Shown: positions 4,290 to 46,960 of the stretch, in pieces | How positions within the stretch are numbered: position 1 is the stretch's first letter | Layout: every line of letters starts with the position of its first letter | Virus record (IMG/VR): IMGVR_UViG_3300045988_170943 | Coordinates: 1-64,000 of that record | Reading direction: 5' to 3' (one strand) | Origin: a virus | Length of the DNA: 64,000 bases | Position numbers and translations under genes: made by a program | The notes under the pieces: generated by a model | Database searches by the model: none | Told to the model about the DNA's origin: nothing | What the model saw: only the letters and a program-made list of their open reading frames with translations

Positions 4290-5995
4290 GTTTTGTGAGG
4301 TTGTGTCCAGGGGCGGCATGTCATGGTATCACGCAACATGTCCGTCTCGCAACACTCGCTGACTAGGTTGGGGATCCCCTAGAATCTAGGGTTTCCCTCA
4401 CCATCATCAGCGTCGCCTCCAAACAGTTGTTGGAGGTACCGGTGTGTCCCTGGATTCCACCCAAGACAGTGACCGGCTTCGACTGCCGTGTAACAGCCGA
4501 ACTTCGCTCTAACGTTCTCTGACGAAGCAGTAAGCGCATTCTCTCTCGTGATCGGGATGACTGGGATGTCGCGCGCAGCGCAATCTCACGACTGGCACTC
4601 ACATCTCTGTTCAGTGAGAAACCACAAACTGTGCAGGCGCCAACTCGCGTCTTCGAGTTATTCGATACCTGACCGCCACATCTAGAACAGGTTCTAGATG
4701 TGTTCTTGGCACTCACCTTAACCACCTTCAGGCCATAACGCTTAGCGGTTTTCTCGATCCTGTGCTGTATCTCGGCATGAGGCCAGCGACCGCCTTGAGA
4801 GTCCAGCCAGGACAGGTTCTCTAAAGACAGGTGGGCATCGCTCTTCTCAGCGATTCCCACTACCTGGCTGGCGATACACTGACTGATCTCATGCTTGATC
4901 CTAGTGGCCTTAGCGCTGACTCTTTTCGCCTCGGTTCTGAGAACCTGGGCGTGAAAGTCCCGATTGTGTTTCTCACAAAGGTTTGCTCGCTCGTACAGAT
5001 GGGCGGCTAGAGTACGACGCTGCCGCTCCTTCTTAACTAGAGAGCCGATCCGTTTCTTATAGTTGGCGTGATACGGAGCAGACCTGTGCTTGTTCTCAGG
5101 GTCAAGGACGGTAGCGACGAACGGCTCCACCTTACCCAGGTCAACACCCATGACATTCTTGGTCTGACGAGTATCCACTTCATGCTCGATAGCGACATCA
5201 AAGACGACCCGACCTTTACTGTTCAGTCTGATGGTTGGGCGACAGACCTTGCCATCACCAAATCTCTCGCTGTTCTCTGGTAACCTGAGACTAATCTTGG
5301 TGAGACCATAAGTAGGCGTCTTCACCTGAACAACAACATTCAACGGATCGCTGTCGTCTCGAACTGCCTTAGGTGCGAAGTAGGTGTCACACACAGCCAG
5401 GTTCAGTTTGGCGCTCACTCCTGGTAGAGACGCTTTACGCTCACCTTTCTTGTGGTACCTGATCAGGTGAGCACGGATCATTCCACTGGTCGGTTGCGGG
5501 GCATCAGGATAGGTTCTTCTGTAGCAGGAGAGGATCTTTTCTGGGCTGGTCTCCTTAGGGTGAGTGTTCATTACCTGGAATAAACCCACTGAGATGGCAT
5601 AATCCTCTAGAGCGCCAACCGCATTGGTGACCAGCATCTCGTTCATGTTGTGCTTCTGAAACTCAAAGTCGTAGCGAGGCAGTCTCTTCCTGCCCCAGGA
5701 GTTCAAGGAACCAGTCGGCCTGTCACCTTTCAGGGTCTTCACTGCCAGGTCGTGAAACTCTGAACCGGCAAGCACCTCTCGTTCTGACTCGGCCATCCAG
5801 GTAACCATCTGAGCCAGATCGCGTTCAACCTGCTCCACGTCAACCCTGTTTTCTGTGGTGAACCTGTGCCTAGTCACCGTGTCATAGTATCTCACAGGTT
5901 CACCTCCTCTTGAATGGGTTGATTAGTAGCACCTATATAGTGTATTGTAGTACAGAGTGACTTGATACTGCAAGTCAAGGGATTGTAAAGGATCT
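4290..5995 (-). mobile_element. IS200/IS605-type element carrying only a TnpB-like gene (no TnpA); ends approximate
   Basis: Holds the TnpB-like ORF. The AT-rich 5' flank 5905..5990 carries the hairpin GACTTG-atactg-CAAGTC (5966..5983). The 3' flank carries the palindromes GGGGATCCCC and CCCTAGAATCTAGGG (about 4365..4400). Exact ends and target site are not determinable by eye. Confidence 0.5.
4363..5895 (-). CDS. tnpB: TnpB-like RNA-guided endonuclease (IS605 OrfB family; split RuvC with zinc finger), 510 aa
   Basis: Carries a split RuvC: GVDLGKVEPFV (RuvC-I Asp), LSLENLSW (RuvC-II Glu), a zinc finger CSRCG..(x12)..CTVCG, and NRDVSAS (RuvC-III Asp). No HNH domain is present, so it is not IscB or Cas9. 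Confidence 0.8.
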   Translation of the reverse strand: MRYYDTVTRHRFTTENRVDVEQVERDLAQMVTWMAESEREVLAGSEFHDLAVKTLKGDRPTGSLNSWGRKRLPRYDFEFQKHNMNEMLVTNAVGALEDYAISVGLFQVMNTHPKETSPEKILSCYRRTYPDAPQPTSGMIRAHLIRYHKKGERKASLPGVSAKLNLAVCDTYFAPKAVRDDSDPLNVVVQVKTPTYGLTKISLRLPENSERFGDGKVCRPTIRLNSKGRVVFDVAIEHEVDTRQTKNVMGVDLGKVEPFVATVLDPENKHRSAPYHANYKKRIGSLVKKERQRRTLAAHLYERANLCEKHNRDFHAQVLRTEAKRVSAKATRIKHEISQCIASQVVGIAEKSDAHLSLENLSWLDSQGGRWPHAEIQHRIEKTAKRYGLKVVKVSAKNTSRTCSRCGGQVSNNSKTRVGACTVCGFSLNRDVSASREIALRATSQSSRSRERMRLLLRQRTLERSSAVTRQSKPVTVLGGIQGHTGTSNNCLEATLMMVRETLDSRGSPT

Positions 5996-26940: not shown

Positions 26941-27366
26941 GGTCGATGTTCTTTCTTGTGCTCGCTAGGGGCTGTCGCACCAGCCTAGGCGGAGAGGTGG
27001 TCCTCCTTTTGCTGGTGTGGCTTAGCCCTTGTGTAAGACAGTGATACCACGCGCCTGTCTGGGGCTGCAACTACTGTCCCCTGTATGGTAGCGTGATGCT
27101 GGCCACAGTGCTTGGTTGCGTGTGATTAACGAACGCCACCTAAAGCGTTTGCGTCGCATGGTCTTCCTGGTGCCCCAATAAGGTCATTGCCTGGTTCAGA
27201 GGGGCCGCATCCAAGCCCCGCCCTATAGGGATTGGTGGTTAGAAAACCCATTACTGGGGCGGATTCATGGGCACCCAAGTCAGGTTTCCACCCACCGGGA
27301 CCACAGGAACAGTTTCAAGAGTGTATCCATAGCCACCAGTAAAGGGCGAGAAGGAGACGAGCAGCA

Positions 27367-27630
27367 ATGGCAAACAGGGCCAGCAGGCACAGCATGACGA
27401 AGTGGCACCCACGTAAGAGCGACGGCAAGGCAGTCAGGTGCGAGGCCGATGTCAGGAAGTGCCCAAGAACCAAGGAGGGTGAGGTGCACGTATACGCCAA
27501 CACCCCAGGTGAGGCCCAACGAAAGATCGACACCATCAAAGCCGAGTACGCCGGGGAAGGACTGTTCGCCACAGCATCCACCAGCAACCCCAGCACCACT
27601 GTCACCCCCCCCCAACACCAATTCTGGTGA
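27367..27630 (+). CDS. N-terminal ORF (87 aa, basic, CxxxxxC) ending at a C9 homopolymer; possibly fused by a frameshift to the kinase ORF
   Basis: RBS GAGAAGGAGACGAG before the ATG. A run of nine C at about 27603..27611 lies where it overlaps the +1 frame ORF 27449..28642. Confidence 0.4.
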   Translation: MANRASRHSMTKWHPRKSDGKAVRCEADVRKCPRTKEGEVHVYANTPGEAQRKIDTIKAEYAGEGLFATASTSNPSTTVTPPQHQFW

Positions 27631-28642
27631 CACTAAGCCACCAGCCCCTACCCCTGGCGGTGCCGCACCCAGTGGACGTGACAACACGCCTCCACCGGAG
27701 AACGACAACGACACCCAGGCGAGGAAAGCGTGGGAGCAGATGTCCCTCGTTGAGCAGGGCCGCGAGTGCGAACGCATCCTGAACGAGGCCATACGAAACC
27801 GCCAACCAATCGGCGGGCTAGACCTGTCACTACGTCAACAGTACGCCGAGCGCGCCCTGTCCCAGGCGATACGAGACGGCAAGATCACCAGCAAAATCTA
27901 CGCATCCAGTGAGGTCCCCGGCATGGAGTACACGAAGGAGCGGCACCTGGCGCAGCAGGAGATCATTGAGGACGTGCTCAAGGCCCACGACAAGGTACCC
28001 CGCGAAGGGAAAGCGGTCCTGTCCGGCGGAATGGGTGGAGCAGGCAAAACCACCGTCCTCACCCGATACCTCGGCATGGACACCAGCCAATACATCACCA
28101 TCAACCCAGACGACATCAAAGAGATCATGGCAGAAAGAGGCATGATCCCAACCTTGCGTGGCCTCACCCCCATGGAGTGCTCCACCCTCGCCCACCAGGA
28201 AGCCTCCTACATCTCCAGCCTCATCATGAAACGCGCCATCGCCGAGAAAAGAAACATCATCCTGGACGGCACCATGGCCAGCATGAAGTCCATGAGACGC
28301 AGAACCGGGCAACTTCGAGACGGCGGCTACCACCTGAGTGCCGTGTTCGTTGACATCACCCCAGAAACCTCCCAGAAGCGGGCCACATCCAGGTACCAGA
28401 GAGGCATGAGCAAATACACGACCTCAGGGGAGGGGAACGGTGGCCGTATCCTCCCCGCATCCGTCAACCAGAGCAACACGCCAGAGGACCCGACACGGTT
28501 CAGGTCACGCAGCGCAGAGAACCTGGCGGCCCTGTACGAGGACGGCACCATACCCAGCACCCCGGTCGTCTACAACAACGACGGAGACGCCCCACAGCCC
28601 GTAGCATACGACGACTTCGTTGGTAGGGTTGAGTATAAGTGA
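27449..28642 (+). CDS. P-loop kinase, zeta-toxin-like or AAA_33-like (Walker A GGMGGAGKTT); Pro-rich N-terminal region
   Basis: Walker A sequence VLSGGMGGAGKTTVL, followed by ILDGTMAS, fits the zeta-toxin and polynucleotide-kinase-like P-loop family. The N-terminal 80 aa in this frame are low-complexity, so the true N-terminus may come from ORF 27367 through the C9 tract. Confidence 0.55.
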   Translation: MSGSAQEPRRVRCTYTPTPQVRPNERSTPSKPSTPGKDCSPQHPPATPAPLSPPPNTNSGDTKPPAPTPGGAAPSGRDNTPPPENDNDTQARKAWEQMSLVEQGRECERILNEAIRNRQPIGGLDLSLRQQYAERALSQAIRDGKITSKIYASSEVPGMEYTKERHLAQQEIIEDVLKAHDKVPREGKAVLSGGMGGAGKTTVLTRYLGMDTSQYITINPDDIKEIMAERGMIPTLRGLTPMECSTLAHQEASYISSLIMKRAIAEKRNIILDGTMASMKSMRRRTGQLRDGGYHLSAVFVDITPETSQKRATSRYQRGMSKYTTSGEGNGGRILPASVNQSNTPEDPTRFRSRSAENLAALYEDGTIPSTPVVYNNDGDAPQPVAYDDFVGRVEYK

Positions 28643-28772: not shown

Positions 28773-29060
28773 ATGGCGAATACGCTAGTTGACATCTACA
28801 ACGACTATGTTGCCGACCCCACCAAGGACCAGGGCGCCTACATTCGGCGTATCCAGTCCATCCCCGACGAGGACGTGCCCACTATCTCATATGACCGGGA
28901 CGGGATGGTCCTGGACGGGGGCCTGGACGCGAACACCACTGTGGATGTTGTCGCACTCGCCGGGCACCGCAAGGACGACCAGGATGTCCTGTACCAGTTC
29001 TTGACCATTGTCGCAACCGCGCGCCCCGACAAGCCACAGTTCGACCCCAACCTCTACTGA
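28773..29060 (+). CDS. hypothetical protein (95 aa); tandem paralog of 29079..29357
   Basis: Internal ATG with strong RBS GAGGAGG. Shares TLVDIYNDY...RIQ(S/A)IP...(S/T)YD(R/E)DG...GGLD(A/S)NT with the next gene. Confidence 0.5.
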   Translation: MANTLVDIYNDYVADPTKDQGAYIRRIQSIPDEDVPTISYDRDGMVLDGGLDANTTVDVVALAGHRKDDQDVLYQFLTIVATARPDKPQFDPNLY

Positions 29061-29078: not shown

Positions 29079-29357
29079 GTGGCGGCCAAAACACTAGTTG
29101 ACATCTACAACGACTACTATGAGGACGAGGACACCCCAGCACAGGTGTTCATAGCCCGCATCCAGGCGATCCCCCACAGCAACTTCCCCAGGGTCACCTA
29201 TGATGAGGACGGTCAGGAGGACGTCACGGGTGGCCTTGACAGCAACACCATCTCCACCGTGAGGGCTGTTGCTTACGCCAGCCGTGACGACAGGGATGTT
29301 TTTGACGCCTTCATGAACCTCGTTAAGGCGGCACTACCTGACCTGCCCGCCATGTGA
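29079..29357 (+). CDS. hypothetical protein (92 aa); tandem paralog
   Basis: RBS AAAGGAGGGGTGAGGAAG. Paralogous to the upstream gene. Confidence 0.5.
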   Translation: MAAKTLVDIYNDYYEDEDTPAQVFIARIQAIPHSNFPRVTYDEDGQEDVTGGLDSNTISTVRAVAYASRDDRDVFDAFMNLVKAALPDLPAM

Positions 29358-32064: not shown

Positions 32065-33126
32065 TCATGCGGCCCCCAGGGCGGCGAGCAAGGTTGTGAC
32101 AAGCACGGTCGCCCCATTGTAGGTGGCGTGCAACCCATAGGCGCCCCAGATGTGCTTTTGCTTCAGCACCAGGAGACTGTTGACAAACCCGACCAGCCCC
32201 GTCCAGATGACGATGAACCAGTCTGACACGCTATTGAACCCTTGTGCGTGGGCGAGCCCGAACCAGACGGTAGCGAACAGGACACCCAAGAACCTCGCCG
32301 CCCTGGGGTTCTTGATGCCGGTCTGGAACGAGGACAGGATCATGCCTCGGTAGAACATCTCCTCCAGTAACGGGATAATGAACGGGGTTGCCACATACCA
32401 GAGGAATACACGCCACCCGCCGGTGAGGCCACTCAGGGAAGCGGCCGTGGTGCTGGAGGACATCTTGACGCCCATGGTGACGAGCCCGTAGTTAGCCAAC
32501 TGGAGTGCCAACCACATTCCGGCACCGGCGAGCACACCGAGCCCCAGGTGTTTAAGGTTGAACCCTTTCACCTGTAGGAACTCCCGCCACTTGCTGACGC
32601 TCCCAGTGACCGCCGCTGTCGCCCCCACCATAACGGCCAGTTCCGCGACAGTGACCGCCAGGAGGAGACTCTGGATGCTGGCAGGGTTGCCACCGAGGAT
32701 AGCGACCAGGACAGTGACAGGGATGGCGGCGACAGCGAGCCACAGGAACGCCCCGTACCCGGTGATGAGCGCGGGGATACGTTTCCATCTGCTGCGTTCC
32801 GCTCGCTGCCTTGTCAGGATCAGGGCACCCATGGGGTCTACTGGGGGTATACACCAGGCCTGGGGTGTGTCTGATGGGGATACTCCAGGTTGCTGGCCAG
32901 GCACAAGGGGGATGGTTGAGGCCGGTGATGGTGTGTCTGATGGCGGCAGCGCAGCCGGGGCGACATCGACTTCTGACTGGTTGCGCGCTTGAGACACGTC
33001 TGATGGGGGCTGATTTGGTATCGTGCTATCTGACACTGGCTTATTCCTTAGGTGTGGGTTCAGAAACGGATGTACGGCAGAGAGTATCGGTGAGCGATGC
33101 CCTGTTACTCCTCGCCGCACCTGCAC
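32065..33126 (-). CDS. CPBP-family intramembrane metalloprotease (CAAX protease/Abi-type)
   Basis: Carries the canonical motifs EEMFYRG (EExxxR), FGLAHA (FxxxH) and HATYN (HxxxN), with multiple TM helices. The Pro-rich N-terminal 98 aa may not be translated; an alternative start is at 32832. Confidence 0.7.
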   Translation of the reverse strand: MQVRRGVTGHRSPILSAVHPFLNPHLRNKPVSDSTIPNQPPSDVSQARNQSEVDVAPAALPPSDTPSPASTIPLVPGQQPGVSPSDTPQAWCIPPVDPMGALILTRQRAERSRWKRIPALITGYGAFLWLAVAAIPVTVLVAILGGNPASIQSLLLAVTVAELAVMVGATAAVTGSVSKWREFLQVKGFNLKHLGLGVLAGAGMWLALQLANYGLVTMGVKMSSSTTAASLSGLTGGWRVFLWYVATPFIIPLLEEMFYRGMILSSFQTGIKNPRAARFLGVLFATVWFGLAHAQGFNSVSDWFIVIWTGLVGFVNSLLVLKQKHIWGAYGLHATYNGATVLVTTLLAALGAA

Positions 33127-45259: not shown

Positions 45260-46960
45260 CTCCTCGAAGTGCTGGGGTGTCGTTTACTTGCACTAGGCTA
45301 CTCGCCATCTACTGTTCCTGTCAATCATGATTCGAGCGAAGTAAGCGTATGACTATTCCTTGAGATAAACCGTATCTATTGTATTCCCAATAGGTAGGTC
45401 CCTTGTCGGAATTGTCGTGCCGCTGGTTGTCTGAAACCACTCCAGGTGGTCCACCGCAGAAACCCTAGACTCTGCGGGGCACATCCCTTTACTCACCTCC
45501 TTGGAAGGTGCAGCAGGAACGTCAGTTTTTGGTTTGTTCTGTGGCGCCTTTGGTGTGGGCCGGTTCTTCGTGCCAGGATGCTTGAGCGGTTTTACATGGC
45601 ACTTGGAGCGGCGGACACGCTTGGTCTTTGTAGCGTGCCGCTTCCGTGTCTGGCACGCCTTAGCGTGATTCACCTTCTGAGCGATGTTCGCCGCCGCATT
45701 AATGTCCCGATGGTGTGTAACACCACAGGTAGTGCAGTGTGGCTGGGAGTAGTTCTGCATGTCTAGATTCGACTGGCAGGCGTGGCACTTTCTGGACGTA
45801 TAGGCCGCATTGACTTTGAGGACCCTGCCGCCGTCGGCCTCAATCATGTCACGGGTACGTCTGTACACCTCGCCACGGAACCACCTACCGAACTTCATGG
45901 TGTTCTTGATATGGGATAGGTCCTCAAACACCACCAGAGCATTGTCATACTTCCAGGCCGCGTCAGCAACCTCCTGAGCAATGAGGATACTCAGTTCCTT
46001 ACGACGATTCGATAGATGCTCTCTGTGAGAAACCGCCTCCTTGTCCTTGCCTTTTCTCTTCAGGGAAGCGACCTGTCTGGCTCCACGTTTGATCTTGTTG
46101 CTCAGCGACCTCGAACGCTGGCCTAAAAGAGATCTCTCAACGACCTGTTTCTTCTCAGTGTCCCAGACGACGTAAGCGGCCGGATTGGCGACTCCGACGT
46201 CCACACCAATGACGTACCTGGAAGAGAACTCGGGGCGGCCAGGATCCGTCGTGCCATGGAACCCGAACATGACCCTGTTGTTCTTGTCAACCCAGACGTC
46301 TGGTACACCAGGCTCACAGCCCGGCTCTAGTAGTTGAGGTGGCGTCGGGAAGTGCAGTGTCACCCACTGACCCTGGACAACCATGTCAAGAGAAATACGT
46401 TCTGGTGTGACACTGAAGTTCTTGTGGTAGCCCTTGTCTGTAGCGGACAGGGCCAGACGAGGCTGTAGGGCCCTGGGTTTAGAGTCTTTGACGGTCCTTC
46501 TCCACCCAGCCGAGACGTAACCAGTGTAGTTCCCGGAAGCAACTCCTGCTCTGGTGGTCCAGGATCTTAGATTGACAACTACTTGCTCTCTGAACATACG
46601 TTCCAATCTGGAACTACCGCTTCTGAGCCGCTTCTTCACCTCACTGGGGAGAAACAGACCCATTCTCCGACCTGCCTCAGCGGGTTTGTATCTGTCGAAG
46701 TAGGTCACCAGAGCGAGGTTCTGCTCAGTCAACTCCCGTAAGGCATAGTGAGCAGATAACTCTGCATCCTTCCTGATACCGTCCAGGACTTCATCAAGAT
46801 CCAGAGGATCACCACTCTTGCTGAATGCAGCGTACGGCACCCTTGGGTATGTGCGAGACACAACAGTCTTAGACGGCATCCGGTGAGCCTCCTCTCAAAG
46901 AAGTCGTACGTGTGTATCCTAACACAGGATCAGTGAAGTATGCCAGTACATACCAAGACA
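45260..46960 (-). mobile_element. second TnpB-only IS200/605-like element; boundaries approximate
   Basis: Defined by the TnpB-like gene and its flanks. The ends are not resolved by eye. Confidence 0.4.
45353..46879 (-). CDS. tnpB: TnpB-like endonuclease (IS605 OrfB family), 508 aa, with about 100-aa basic C-terminal tail
   Basis: IGVDVGVANPA (RuvC-I), VVFEDLSHIK (RuvC-II Glu), a zinc finger CHACQ..(x12)..CTTCG, and HRDINAAANIA (RuvC-III). Unrelated in sequence to the first TnpB-like gene. Confidence 0.85.
   Translation of the reverse strand: MPSKTVVSRTYPRVPYAAFSKSGDPLDLDEVLDGIRKDAELSAHYALRELTEQNLALVTYFDRYKPAEAGRRMGLFLPSEVKKRLRSGSSRLERMFREQVVVNLRSWTTRAGVASGNYTGYVSAGWRRTVKDSKPRALQPRLALSATDKGYHKNFSVTPERISLDMVVQGQWVTLHFPTPPQLLEPGCEPGVPDVWVDKNNRVMFGFHGTTDPGRPEFSSRYVIGVDVGVANPAAYVVWDTEKKQVVERSLLGQRSRSLSNKIKRGARQVASLKRKGKDKEAVSHREHLSNRRKELSILIAQEVADAAWKYDNALVVFEDLSHIKNTMKFGRWFRGEVYRRTRDMIEADGGRVLKVNAAYTSRKCHACQSNLDMQNYSQPHCTTCGVTHHRDINAAANIAQKVNHAKACQTRKRHATKTKRVRRSKCHVKPLKHPGTKNRPTPKAPQNKPKTDVPAAPSKEVSKGMCPAESRVSAVDHLEWFQTTSGTTIPTRDLPIGNTIDTVYLKE

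Follow-up and report, generated by a model that had tools for sequence, protein, structure and literature searches.

Recent work has reported contingency loci in the phages T2 and T4, such as the A-run at bases 288-296 of T2 agt (Gomez, Barrick & Waters, bioRxiv 10.1101/2025.10.21.683753), and hypermutable polyG tracts in Campylobacter Fletchervirus phages are credited to Sorensen et al. (2021, Cell Rep 35:109214, as cited in PMC10877375). Homopolymer phase variation has also been described in Mycobacterium tuberculosis, for instance as glpK nt565-572insC (10.1101/2022.06.10.495637). Here we consider a run of nine C (C9) in a 64,000-nt stretch of viral DNA, positions 1 to 64,000 of IMG/VR record IMGVR_UViG_3300045988_170943 (UViG, uncultivated virus genome). 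This whole stretch is called the window, and coordinates are window positions. The run lies on the + strand at 27605..27613, within a gene for a two-domain, zeta-toxin-like P-loop kinase. We conclude that the tract is a natural slippage hot spot that leaves this gene either intact or split, and on balance we favor a contingency-type (phase-variable) tract that toggles the gene between a whole and a split, OFF state.

As in the known phage contingency loci, a mononucleotide run of about 9 nt lies in the coding region of a phage or phage-like element, changes in its length that are not multiples of three switch the product, and both states are found in populations. The differences concern both the material and the gene. 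Switching rates were measured in the phage systems, whereas the alleles described here are natural ones from metagenomes; the run is poly-C in a GC-rich, uncultivated element of ~420 kb; it sits in a zeta-like kinase gene instead of a DNA-modification or receptor-binding gene; and the shift parts two domains, in contrast with the simple enzyme truncation seen elsewhere. With M. tuberculosis glpK the locus shares a run of 7-9 C or G in a kinase gene, recurrent +/-1 frameshifts in natural isolates and probably an actinobacterial context, because relatives of the kinase come almost only from Actinomycetota and a Mycobacterium phage. The M. tuberculosis case is chromosomal and is backed by homoplasy on a large phylogeny and a measured rate, whereas recombination blurs the phylogeny here.

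An earlier sequence-only reading of the window had placed the run at 27603..27611, which is 2 nt off its true position. It was right that the run lies where an open reading frame (ORF) at 27367..27630 meets a +1-frame ORF at 27449..28642, that the upstream ORF has a good ribosome-binding site, and that the downstream ORF holds a kinase with the Walker A motif GGMGGAGKTT. Its proposal that a single slip in the tract would fuse the two ORFs also holds, as removal of one C yields a 424-aa protein that matches protein P0001 (424 aa) with 98% identity over 100% of the length in a protein search. Dozens of 396/397-aa proteins with ~93% identity also span the full 424-aa query, and in alignments the N-terminal domain and the kinase share a single ORF in relatives down to ~40% identity. 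The orthologues are thus fused single ORFs and not two genuinely separate genes, and the two frames are one two-domain kinase gene split by a one-base change in tract length. The parts of the locus are listed below; ratios of nonsynonymous to synonymous substitution (dN/dS) are pairwise Nei-Gojobori estimates, and pLDDT is the per-residue confidence (predicted local distance difference test) of AlphaFold2.

27351..27356, + strand: Shine-Dalgarno-like AAGGAG, 10 nt 5' of the ATG of the gene, read from the sequence
27367..27630, + strand: ORF1, 87 aa, ATG start; the truncated C9 product, with the N-terminal domain, the start of the linker and out-of-frame QHQFW, ending at TGA
27388..27564, + strand: folded N-terminal domain, residues ~8-66, by alignment, AlphaFold2 (pLDDT ~85-90) and dN/dS (0.07-0.16)
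27449..27604, + strand: 5' part of the mechanical ORF2, a +1 frame open by chance that overlaps the true N-terminal frame
27605..27613, + strand: C9 homopolymer, one C above the in-frame C8 allele; codes linker Thr-Pro-Pro
27614..27739, + strand: rest of the disordered linker in the kinase (+1) frame, rich in Pro, Thr, Gly and Asn, mostly within a 27-aa insertion of one sub-lineage
27740..27742, + strand: first in-frame start codon after the ORF1 stop, the Met of conserved WEQMSLVEQ; could open a 300-aa kinase-only product
27740..28642, + strand: helical domain and zeta/PezT/AvrRxo1-like P-loop kinase domain, by Pfam PF06414, pLDDT above 90, Foldseek and dN/dS (~0.05)
28025..28054, + strand: Walker A GGMGGAGKTT, with G221, G224, G226 and K227 invariant in 65 homologues
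28103..28114, + strand: NPDD motif, with D248 invariant in 65 homologues, 21 residues past the P-loop Lys

ORF1 ends 15 nt past the tract, its last five residues being out of frame, and the exact 87-aa protein is found on 17 other contigs. Its conserved domain, low dN/dS and confident predicted fold show that it is coding, a point which the sequence-only reading had left in doubt. Homologues align to the ORF1 frame, not to the +1 frame, across 27449..27604, so the first 156 nt of the mechanical ORF2 are not coding in the +1 frame; an exact look-up of the 397-aa ORF2 product found no record, and gene callers never predict it. Within the N-terminal domain His14, Gly20, Cys25, Ala27 and Cys32 hardly vary, and a His close to position 42 is shared by most relatives; this Cys/His domain may therefore be a small metal-binding module. 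It matches no Pfam family, and an exhaustive HMMER search with the 75-aa domain recovered this kinase family only, plus weak matches in giant repetitive proteins; the latter were rejected as compositional, being weak multi-stretch matches in proteins with incoherent Pfam content.

The AlphaFold2 model of P0001 (mean pLDDT 86) has a confident helical-plus-kinase body at residues 113-420 and a linker at residues 69-106 with pLDDT below 50, predicted to be disordered. The tract codes residues 80-82, within this interdomain linker, and the frameshift therefore separates the two folded domains cleanly. The 27-aa linker insertion that holds the tract is missing from the 396/397-aa orthologues and occurs in one sub-lineage only.

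Of the scenarios put forward by the sequence-only reading, slipped-strand variation in length is the one supported by the alleles, which form a series from C5 to C9. The alleles, with the frame of the kinase and the loci that carry them (L numbers), are as follows.

C9AA: out of frame, +1; the window and L003-L012
C9GA: out of frame; L031/32
C7AA: out of frame, -1; L013-L021, 13 contigs
C6AA: out of frame; L027/28
C8AA: in frame; L024/25 on linker haplotype 2 and L077 on linker haplotype 1
C7AAA: in frame; L001, L002, L022 and L023
C5AA: in frame; L029/30
22-nt deletion between direct CACCA repeats: in frame, 417 aa; L026 at ~2230, equivalent to window 27599-27620

The C9AA allele of the window and the in-frame C8AA allele are one C apart. 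Altogether, 13 flank haplotypes (240 + 130 nt) bear seven tract states, and the closest pairs of in-frame and out-of-frame flank haplotypes are separated by only 2-3 substitutions in 370 nt. Tract length follows the flank haplotype, with no random scatter. Out-of-frame N-terminal fragments are present on at least 43 contigs and in-frame tract-bearing proteins on at least 16 contigs among those listed; a 105-aa protein, P0152, is the product expected of C9 on linker haplotype 2. The deletion allele of L026 is found on four contigs of up to 295 kb, and the whole tract is gone from it. Its N-terminal haplotype is that of the window, which elsewhere occurs only out of frame (C9 or C6), and the allele thus looks like a compensatory restoration of frame by loss of 22 nt from C9; loss of 21 nt from an unseen C8 ancestor is a conceivable alternative origin. 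Near-identity DNA searches with the locus found nothing in phages or plasmids, an exact-pattern scan of IMG/VR was also empty, and in one metagenome scan a single contig matched, carrying C7AAA. A separate 55-aa protein, P0154, known as protein only, appears to come from an allele of the window-type gene with a large internal deletion.

A first-order Markov model of the 64 kb expects ~0.27 C-runs of at least 9 nt and ~0.86 such runs of any base, and the tract alone is therefore not statistically improbable. Two features do exceed chance: the run sits precisely where the two frames meet in a gene that is a single ORF in relatives, and its length varies between related contigs. C9 is the only homopolymer of at least 8 nt in the window, and runs of at least 7 nt are depleted about three-fold (4 observed vs ~12 expected under the same model). 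This suggests general selection against slippery runs in the genome, with the C9 linker tract being an exception.

According to the contingency reading, the linker of one sub-lineage would have gained the 27-aa insertion with its poly-C run, and slipped-strand mispairing at replication would then change the length of the tract, to between 5 and 9 C across natural variants. The C5, C8 and C7AAA alleles keep the protein whole, while C6, C7 and C9 stop translation just past the N-terminal domain. The C9 (+1) allele of the window is real and heritable and does not encode the full-length protein; it encodes the 87-aa fragment with the N-domain, and a kinase-only product would be initiated at ATG 27740 weakly if at all. 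Slippage would thus give rise to whole and split alleles that are inherited, with selection shifting the majority state. This reading draws on the allelic series, the fused relatives, the recurrence of C9 and the constraint on the kinase despite common out-of-frame alleles. As in other contingency loci, a coding-region repeat toggles the frame by +/-1, in-frame and out-of-frame alleles occur among near-identical flanks, and the OFF alleles are otherwise intact, except in L016/L018/L019. We infer that the tract switches often and reversibly within a lineage, and that this is useful to the element. The switchable expression proposed by the earlier reading is shown between populations and may also hold within a single clone.

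Purifying selection on the kinase is strong, and the locus is mosaic. Kinase dN/dS is 0.03-0.06 for almost all pairs, C9 vs C9 pairs included (dS, the synonymous divergence, 0.10-0.29), and a one-base repair gives a full ORF in all out-of-frame clones but L016/L018/L019 (8/9 clones intact). Four backgrounds share the C9 block (~27167..27700) without a difference, although to one side of it or to both they diverge by 5-9%; the C9 allele is thus young relative to its backgrounds and has spread by recombination. This also means that the constraint cannot be dated to the period after the frameshift. The frequency of null alleles in so constrained a gene is hard to explain by mutation pressure alone, and the frequency of out-of-frame alleles favors a conditional advantage with reversibility, or residual function.

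Several observations weigh against a contingency tract. No identical flank haplotype was found with two tract lengths: C9 is the state of all eight contigs that share one set of flanks, and C7 that of all five that share another; each flank haplotype shows one state at the consensus level, so that very high switching rates are disfavored, and the rate of switching may be modest. The tract is also missing from most orthologues (the 396/397-aa proteins) and from a paralogue, and is thus recent rather than a conserved regulatory device. With this paralogue intact elsewhere in the genome, null alleles might be tolerated. Finally, the C7AA loci L016/L018/L019 carry a second frameshift in the kinase at ~2835, equivalent to window ~28201, where a non-homopolymer extra A changes CAGGAGG to CAGGAAGG and the kinase is split into calls of 180 and 138 aa, an indication that this out-of-frame lineage is decaying.

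These same points could be taken to mean that the locus records a dead-end loss of function, in which C9 and C7 are tolerated nulls (young pseudogenes) at a mutational weak spot and the paralogous kinase covers for them. The two paralogues on one 421-kb contig, the second frameshift of the L016/18/19 clone, the apparent large internal deletion in P0154, the stability of tract states within flank haplotypes and the lineage-specific nature of the tract would all fit such decay. We consider it rather unlikely, though it deserves attention, as the kinase has retained a dN/dS of ~0.05 and 8/9 out-of-frame clones are otherwise intact, four of the six classes of disruption allele found map to the 9-nt tract instead of being spread over the 1.27-kb gene, out-of-frame alleles are commoner than deleterious nulls should be, and L026 resembles a restoration of frame. 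Another rival is that the true tract is C8 and that the extra C is an error, given that homopolymers are error-prone and that the frameshift amounts to a single base; the sequence-only reading had listed such a sequencing or assembly indel among its scenarios. The identical C9 allele was read on 17 contigs of up to 418,686 bp, all TGTCA-C9-AACACC, which come from independent samples and different studies, from several ENA and Logan assemblies and from different assemblers (MEGAHIT, SPAdes and Logan), and C7AAA, C8, C7, C6 and C5 are each reproducible and follow the flank haplotype. We therefore reject an artefact as extremely improbable.

It is also possible to read the split as functional. 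Stable gene fission would have the N-terminal domain and the kinase made as two working proteins in C9 (and C7), the second from ATG 27740. The shift falls where a disordered linker joins the two folded domains, the intact kinase ORF is under constraint, and ATG 27740 is a conserved Met that is preceded by GGGAG and is chosen by gene callers, which start a 300-aa gene there on frameshifted contigs. However, GGGAG lies just 3 nt 5' of the ATG, a poor Shine-Dalgarno spacing; a search for an internal promoter-like site near this ATG found none; the ATG is 110 nt past the ORF1 stop, too far for coupling, and the kinase frame has no start codon in between; and the split arrangement is found in no relative without a frameshift. 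Moreover, as the C9 block is young and recombines, the constraint may predate the split and stem from ancestors that were in frame. Fission therefore seems improbable. Recoding, in which C9 would be functional and full-length protein would be made by +1 ribosomal frameshifting at CCC_CCC_C or by slippage of RNA polymerase on the C run, appears less probable again, and we regard it as very doubtful. The recoded fusion product of C9 would be expected to contain the junction peptide TVTPPNTNSGDTK. The sequence CCC CCC C permits perfect +1 re-pairing of tRNA-Pro, the C7AA allele includes the heptamer C_CCC_CCA, and a 5-bp hairpin (CACCA/UGGUG) begins 2 nt past the tract; a Pro-Pro site could also pause ribosomes. 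Against this, the out-of-frame layout is not conserved, as close relatives are in frame (C8, C7AAA, C5) and most orthologues lack a tract, and alleles of both +1 and -1 exist. The shift site has no upstream Shine-Dalgarno sequence, no stop and no rare codon, and the 127-nt downstream fold is just slightly more stable than shuffled sequences (z = -1.98). Since orthologues do not keep the gene out of frame, the shifts that do occur go both ways and no convincing stimulator was found, programmed +1 or -1 frameshifting, another scenario of the sequence-only reading, is unlikely. Low-level spontaneous +1 slippage on CCC_CCC_C is conceivable.

The contingency reading can be extended to an adaptive domain-splitting switch of a human-associated jumbo phage, in which balancing selection keeps fused and split forms and small downstream proteins inhibit the kinase. 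Slippage between C8 and C7 or C9 would then produce a split form consisting of a free N-domain with little or no kinase, or with an untethered kinase. Balancing selection might come from a host defence that senses the protein, for example, or from toxicity of the kinase, and both forms would be common across human cohorts; inhibition by the small downstream proteins would follow the example of AvrRxo1-ORF2. We regard this extended version as speculative and, taken as a whole, unlikely.

The kinase itself is assigned to the zeta/PezT/AvrRxo1 family by predicted fold and profile. Its Zeta_toxin (PF06414)/AAA_33 domain scores 64.2 bits for PF06414 vs a cut-off of 22.3 (E 1.5e-17), and the top Foldseek matches to the PDB are 1gvn (1gvn_B E 1.1e-7), PezT 2p5t and AvrRxo1 4z8t, with target-normalized template modelling (TM) scores of 0.51-0.62; 3q8x is also among the best structural matches. 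The P-loop and the conserved Asp are shared with these proteins, and from its spacing we take D248 to be equivalent to the catalytic Asp D67 of zeta toxin. Identity to the solved members is only 13-16%, and this protein differs from them by a helical domain and by an additional Cys/His domain at its N-terminus; a sequence search of the PDB gave nothing beyond a weak match to PezT. The NCBIfam PezT model was sub-threshold (16.9 bits vs a cut-off of 470) and PADLOC gave no match. No epsilon/PezA-like antitoxin was found upstream, where the genes lie on the opposite strand and have no Pfam match, and the locus is therefore not an epsilon/zeta or PezAT module. Homologous kinase domains in large phage genomes are found in Mycobacterium phage Phrappuccino gp57 (31% identity, the best phage match) and in a minor head/head morphogenesis protein of cyanophage PSS2 (27%), and PHROG 16619 "minor head protein" is also among zeta-toxin-like phage modules. 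In contrast to the gene described here, these proteins are single intact ORFs, some of them head-protein fusions, and none has a poly-C linker.

As in AvrRxo1-ORF1:ORF2, a small conserved gene follows the kinase, and by analogy with that gene order a small downstream protein may be an inhibitor of the kinase. Two such genes are present in the window.

28773..29060, + strand: small downstream gene, 95 aa, in tandem with its paralogue below; adjoins the kinase in all related loci; no Pfam match
29079..29357, + strand: small downstream gene, 92 aa; has a 44%-identical homologue after the second kinase paralogue; no Pfam match

The 95-aa and 92-aa proteins are 42% identical, and the homologue after the second kinase has 86 aa (L076 4340-4600). 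No homologues of these small genes were found beside the actinobacterial chromosomal relatives of the kinase (L033-L074). Directly upstream of the kinase, L015 (1-1868) and L022 (1-1867) carry a resolvase and a TnpB (Cas12f1-like TNB) that form an IS607-like unit, which in some genomes replaces the three divergent small genes (203, 145 and 101 aa) present upstream in the window. The neighborhood of the kinase is thus a site of insertion sequence turnover.

Two paralogous genes with a Cys/His domain and a zeta-like kinase lie inverted, ~83 kb apart, on the 421,241-bp contig ERZ27319640:k141_942782. L077 (~179.7-180.9 kb) encodes 424 aa and has a C8 tract, and L076 (~96.7-97.9 kb), on the opposite strand, encodes 400 aa and is tractless; the kinases are ~65-68% identical. 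No second copy of the kinase or of the N-domain was found within the 64-kb window. A 120-aa protein, P0153, known from its protein sequence, resembles the N-domain of the second paralogue with a linker that is frameshifted beyond ...SSKGGK, and linker frameshifts may therefore occur in the second paralogue as well. In L006 (2001-4264, ZHAN15-1 scaffold_18) we observed a hybrid gene, which is 100% identical to the window, C9 included, up to ~28070; beyond this point (window ~28070-28200) it is 94-99% identical to the paralogue and continues into the downstream genes of the paralogue. This structure fits homologous recombination, probably inversion, between the inverted paralogues within a conserved NPDDIKEIMAERGMIP...TPMECS core.

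The contigs that carry the locus reach 392-424 kb, and a 201-kb UViG in IMG/VR has a 396-aa orthologue. Relatives of the kinase in GTDB genomes are almost all from Actinomycetota and, with the match to Phrappuccino, suggest that the element is probably a ~420-kb jumbo phage of an actinobacterial host. The window itself does not fix the nature of the element or its host, since scans of its 82 non-overlapping ORFs of at least 90 aa gave almost no matches in Pfam or PHROGs. The only Pfam matches were TnpB-like genes at 4363-5895 and 45353-46879 and an Rce1-like gene at 32065-33126, all on the - strand, and one DUF7448, and the only PHROGs matches were two transposase families and two families of unknown function. 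No tRNAs were found in the 64-kb window, and a literature search turned up no specific description of a ~420-kb oral or gut actinobacterial jumbo phage.

The type of switch is already known and is not new, and in other respects the locus is a frameshift polymorphism of the ordinary homopolymer kind. On these contigs, the annotated "genes" of 87 aa and 300/397 aa should be read as halves of one kinase gene. Reports of phage contingency loci are recent and confined to cultured coliphages and vibriophages, whereas the same type of site is seen here in wild populations. It belongs to a common, uncultivated element of ~420 kb whose genes are almost entirely uncharacterized, and it has at least seven natural alleles at one site. 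As such, it offers a concrete locus at which public metagenome reads could measure switching in situ.

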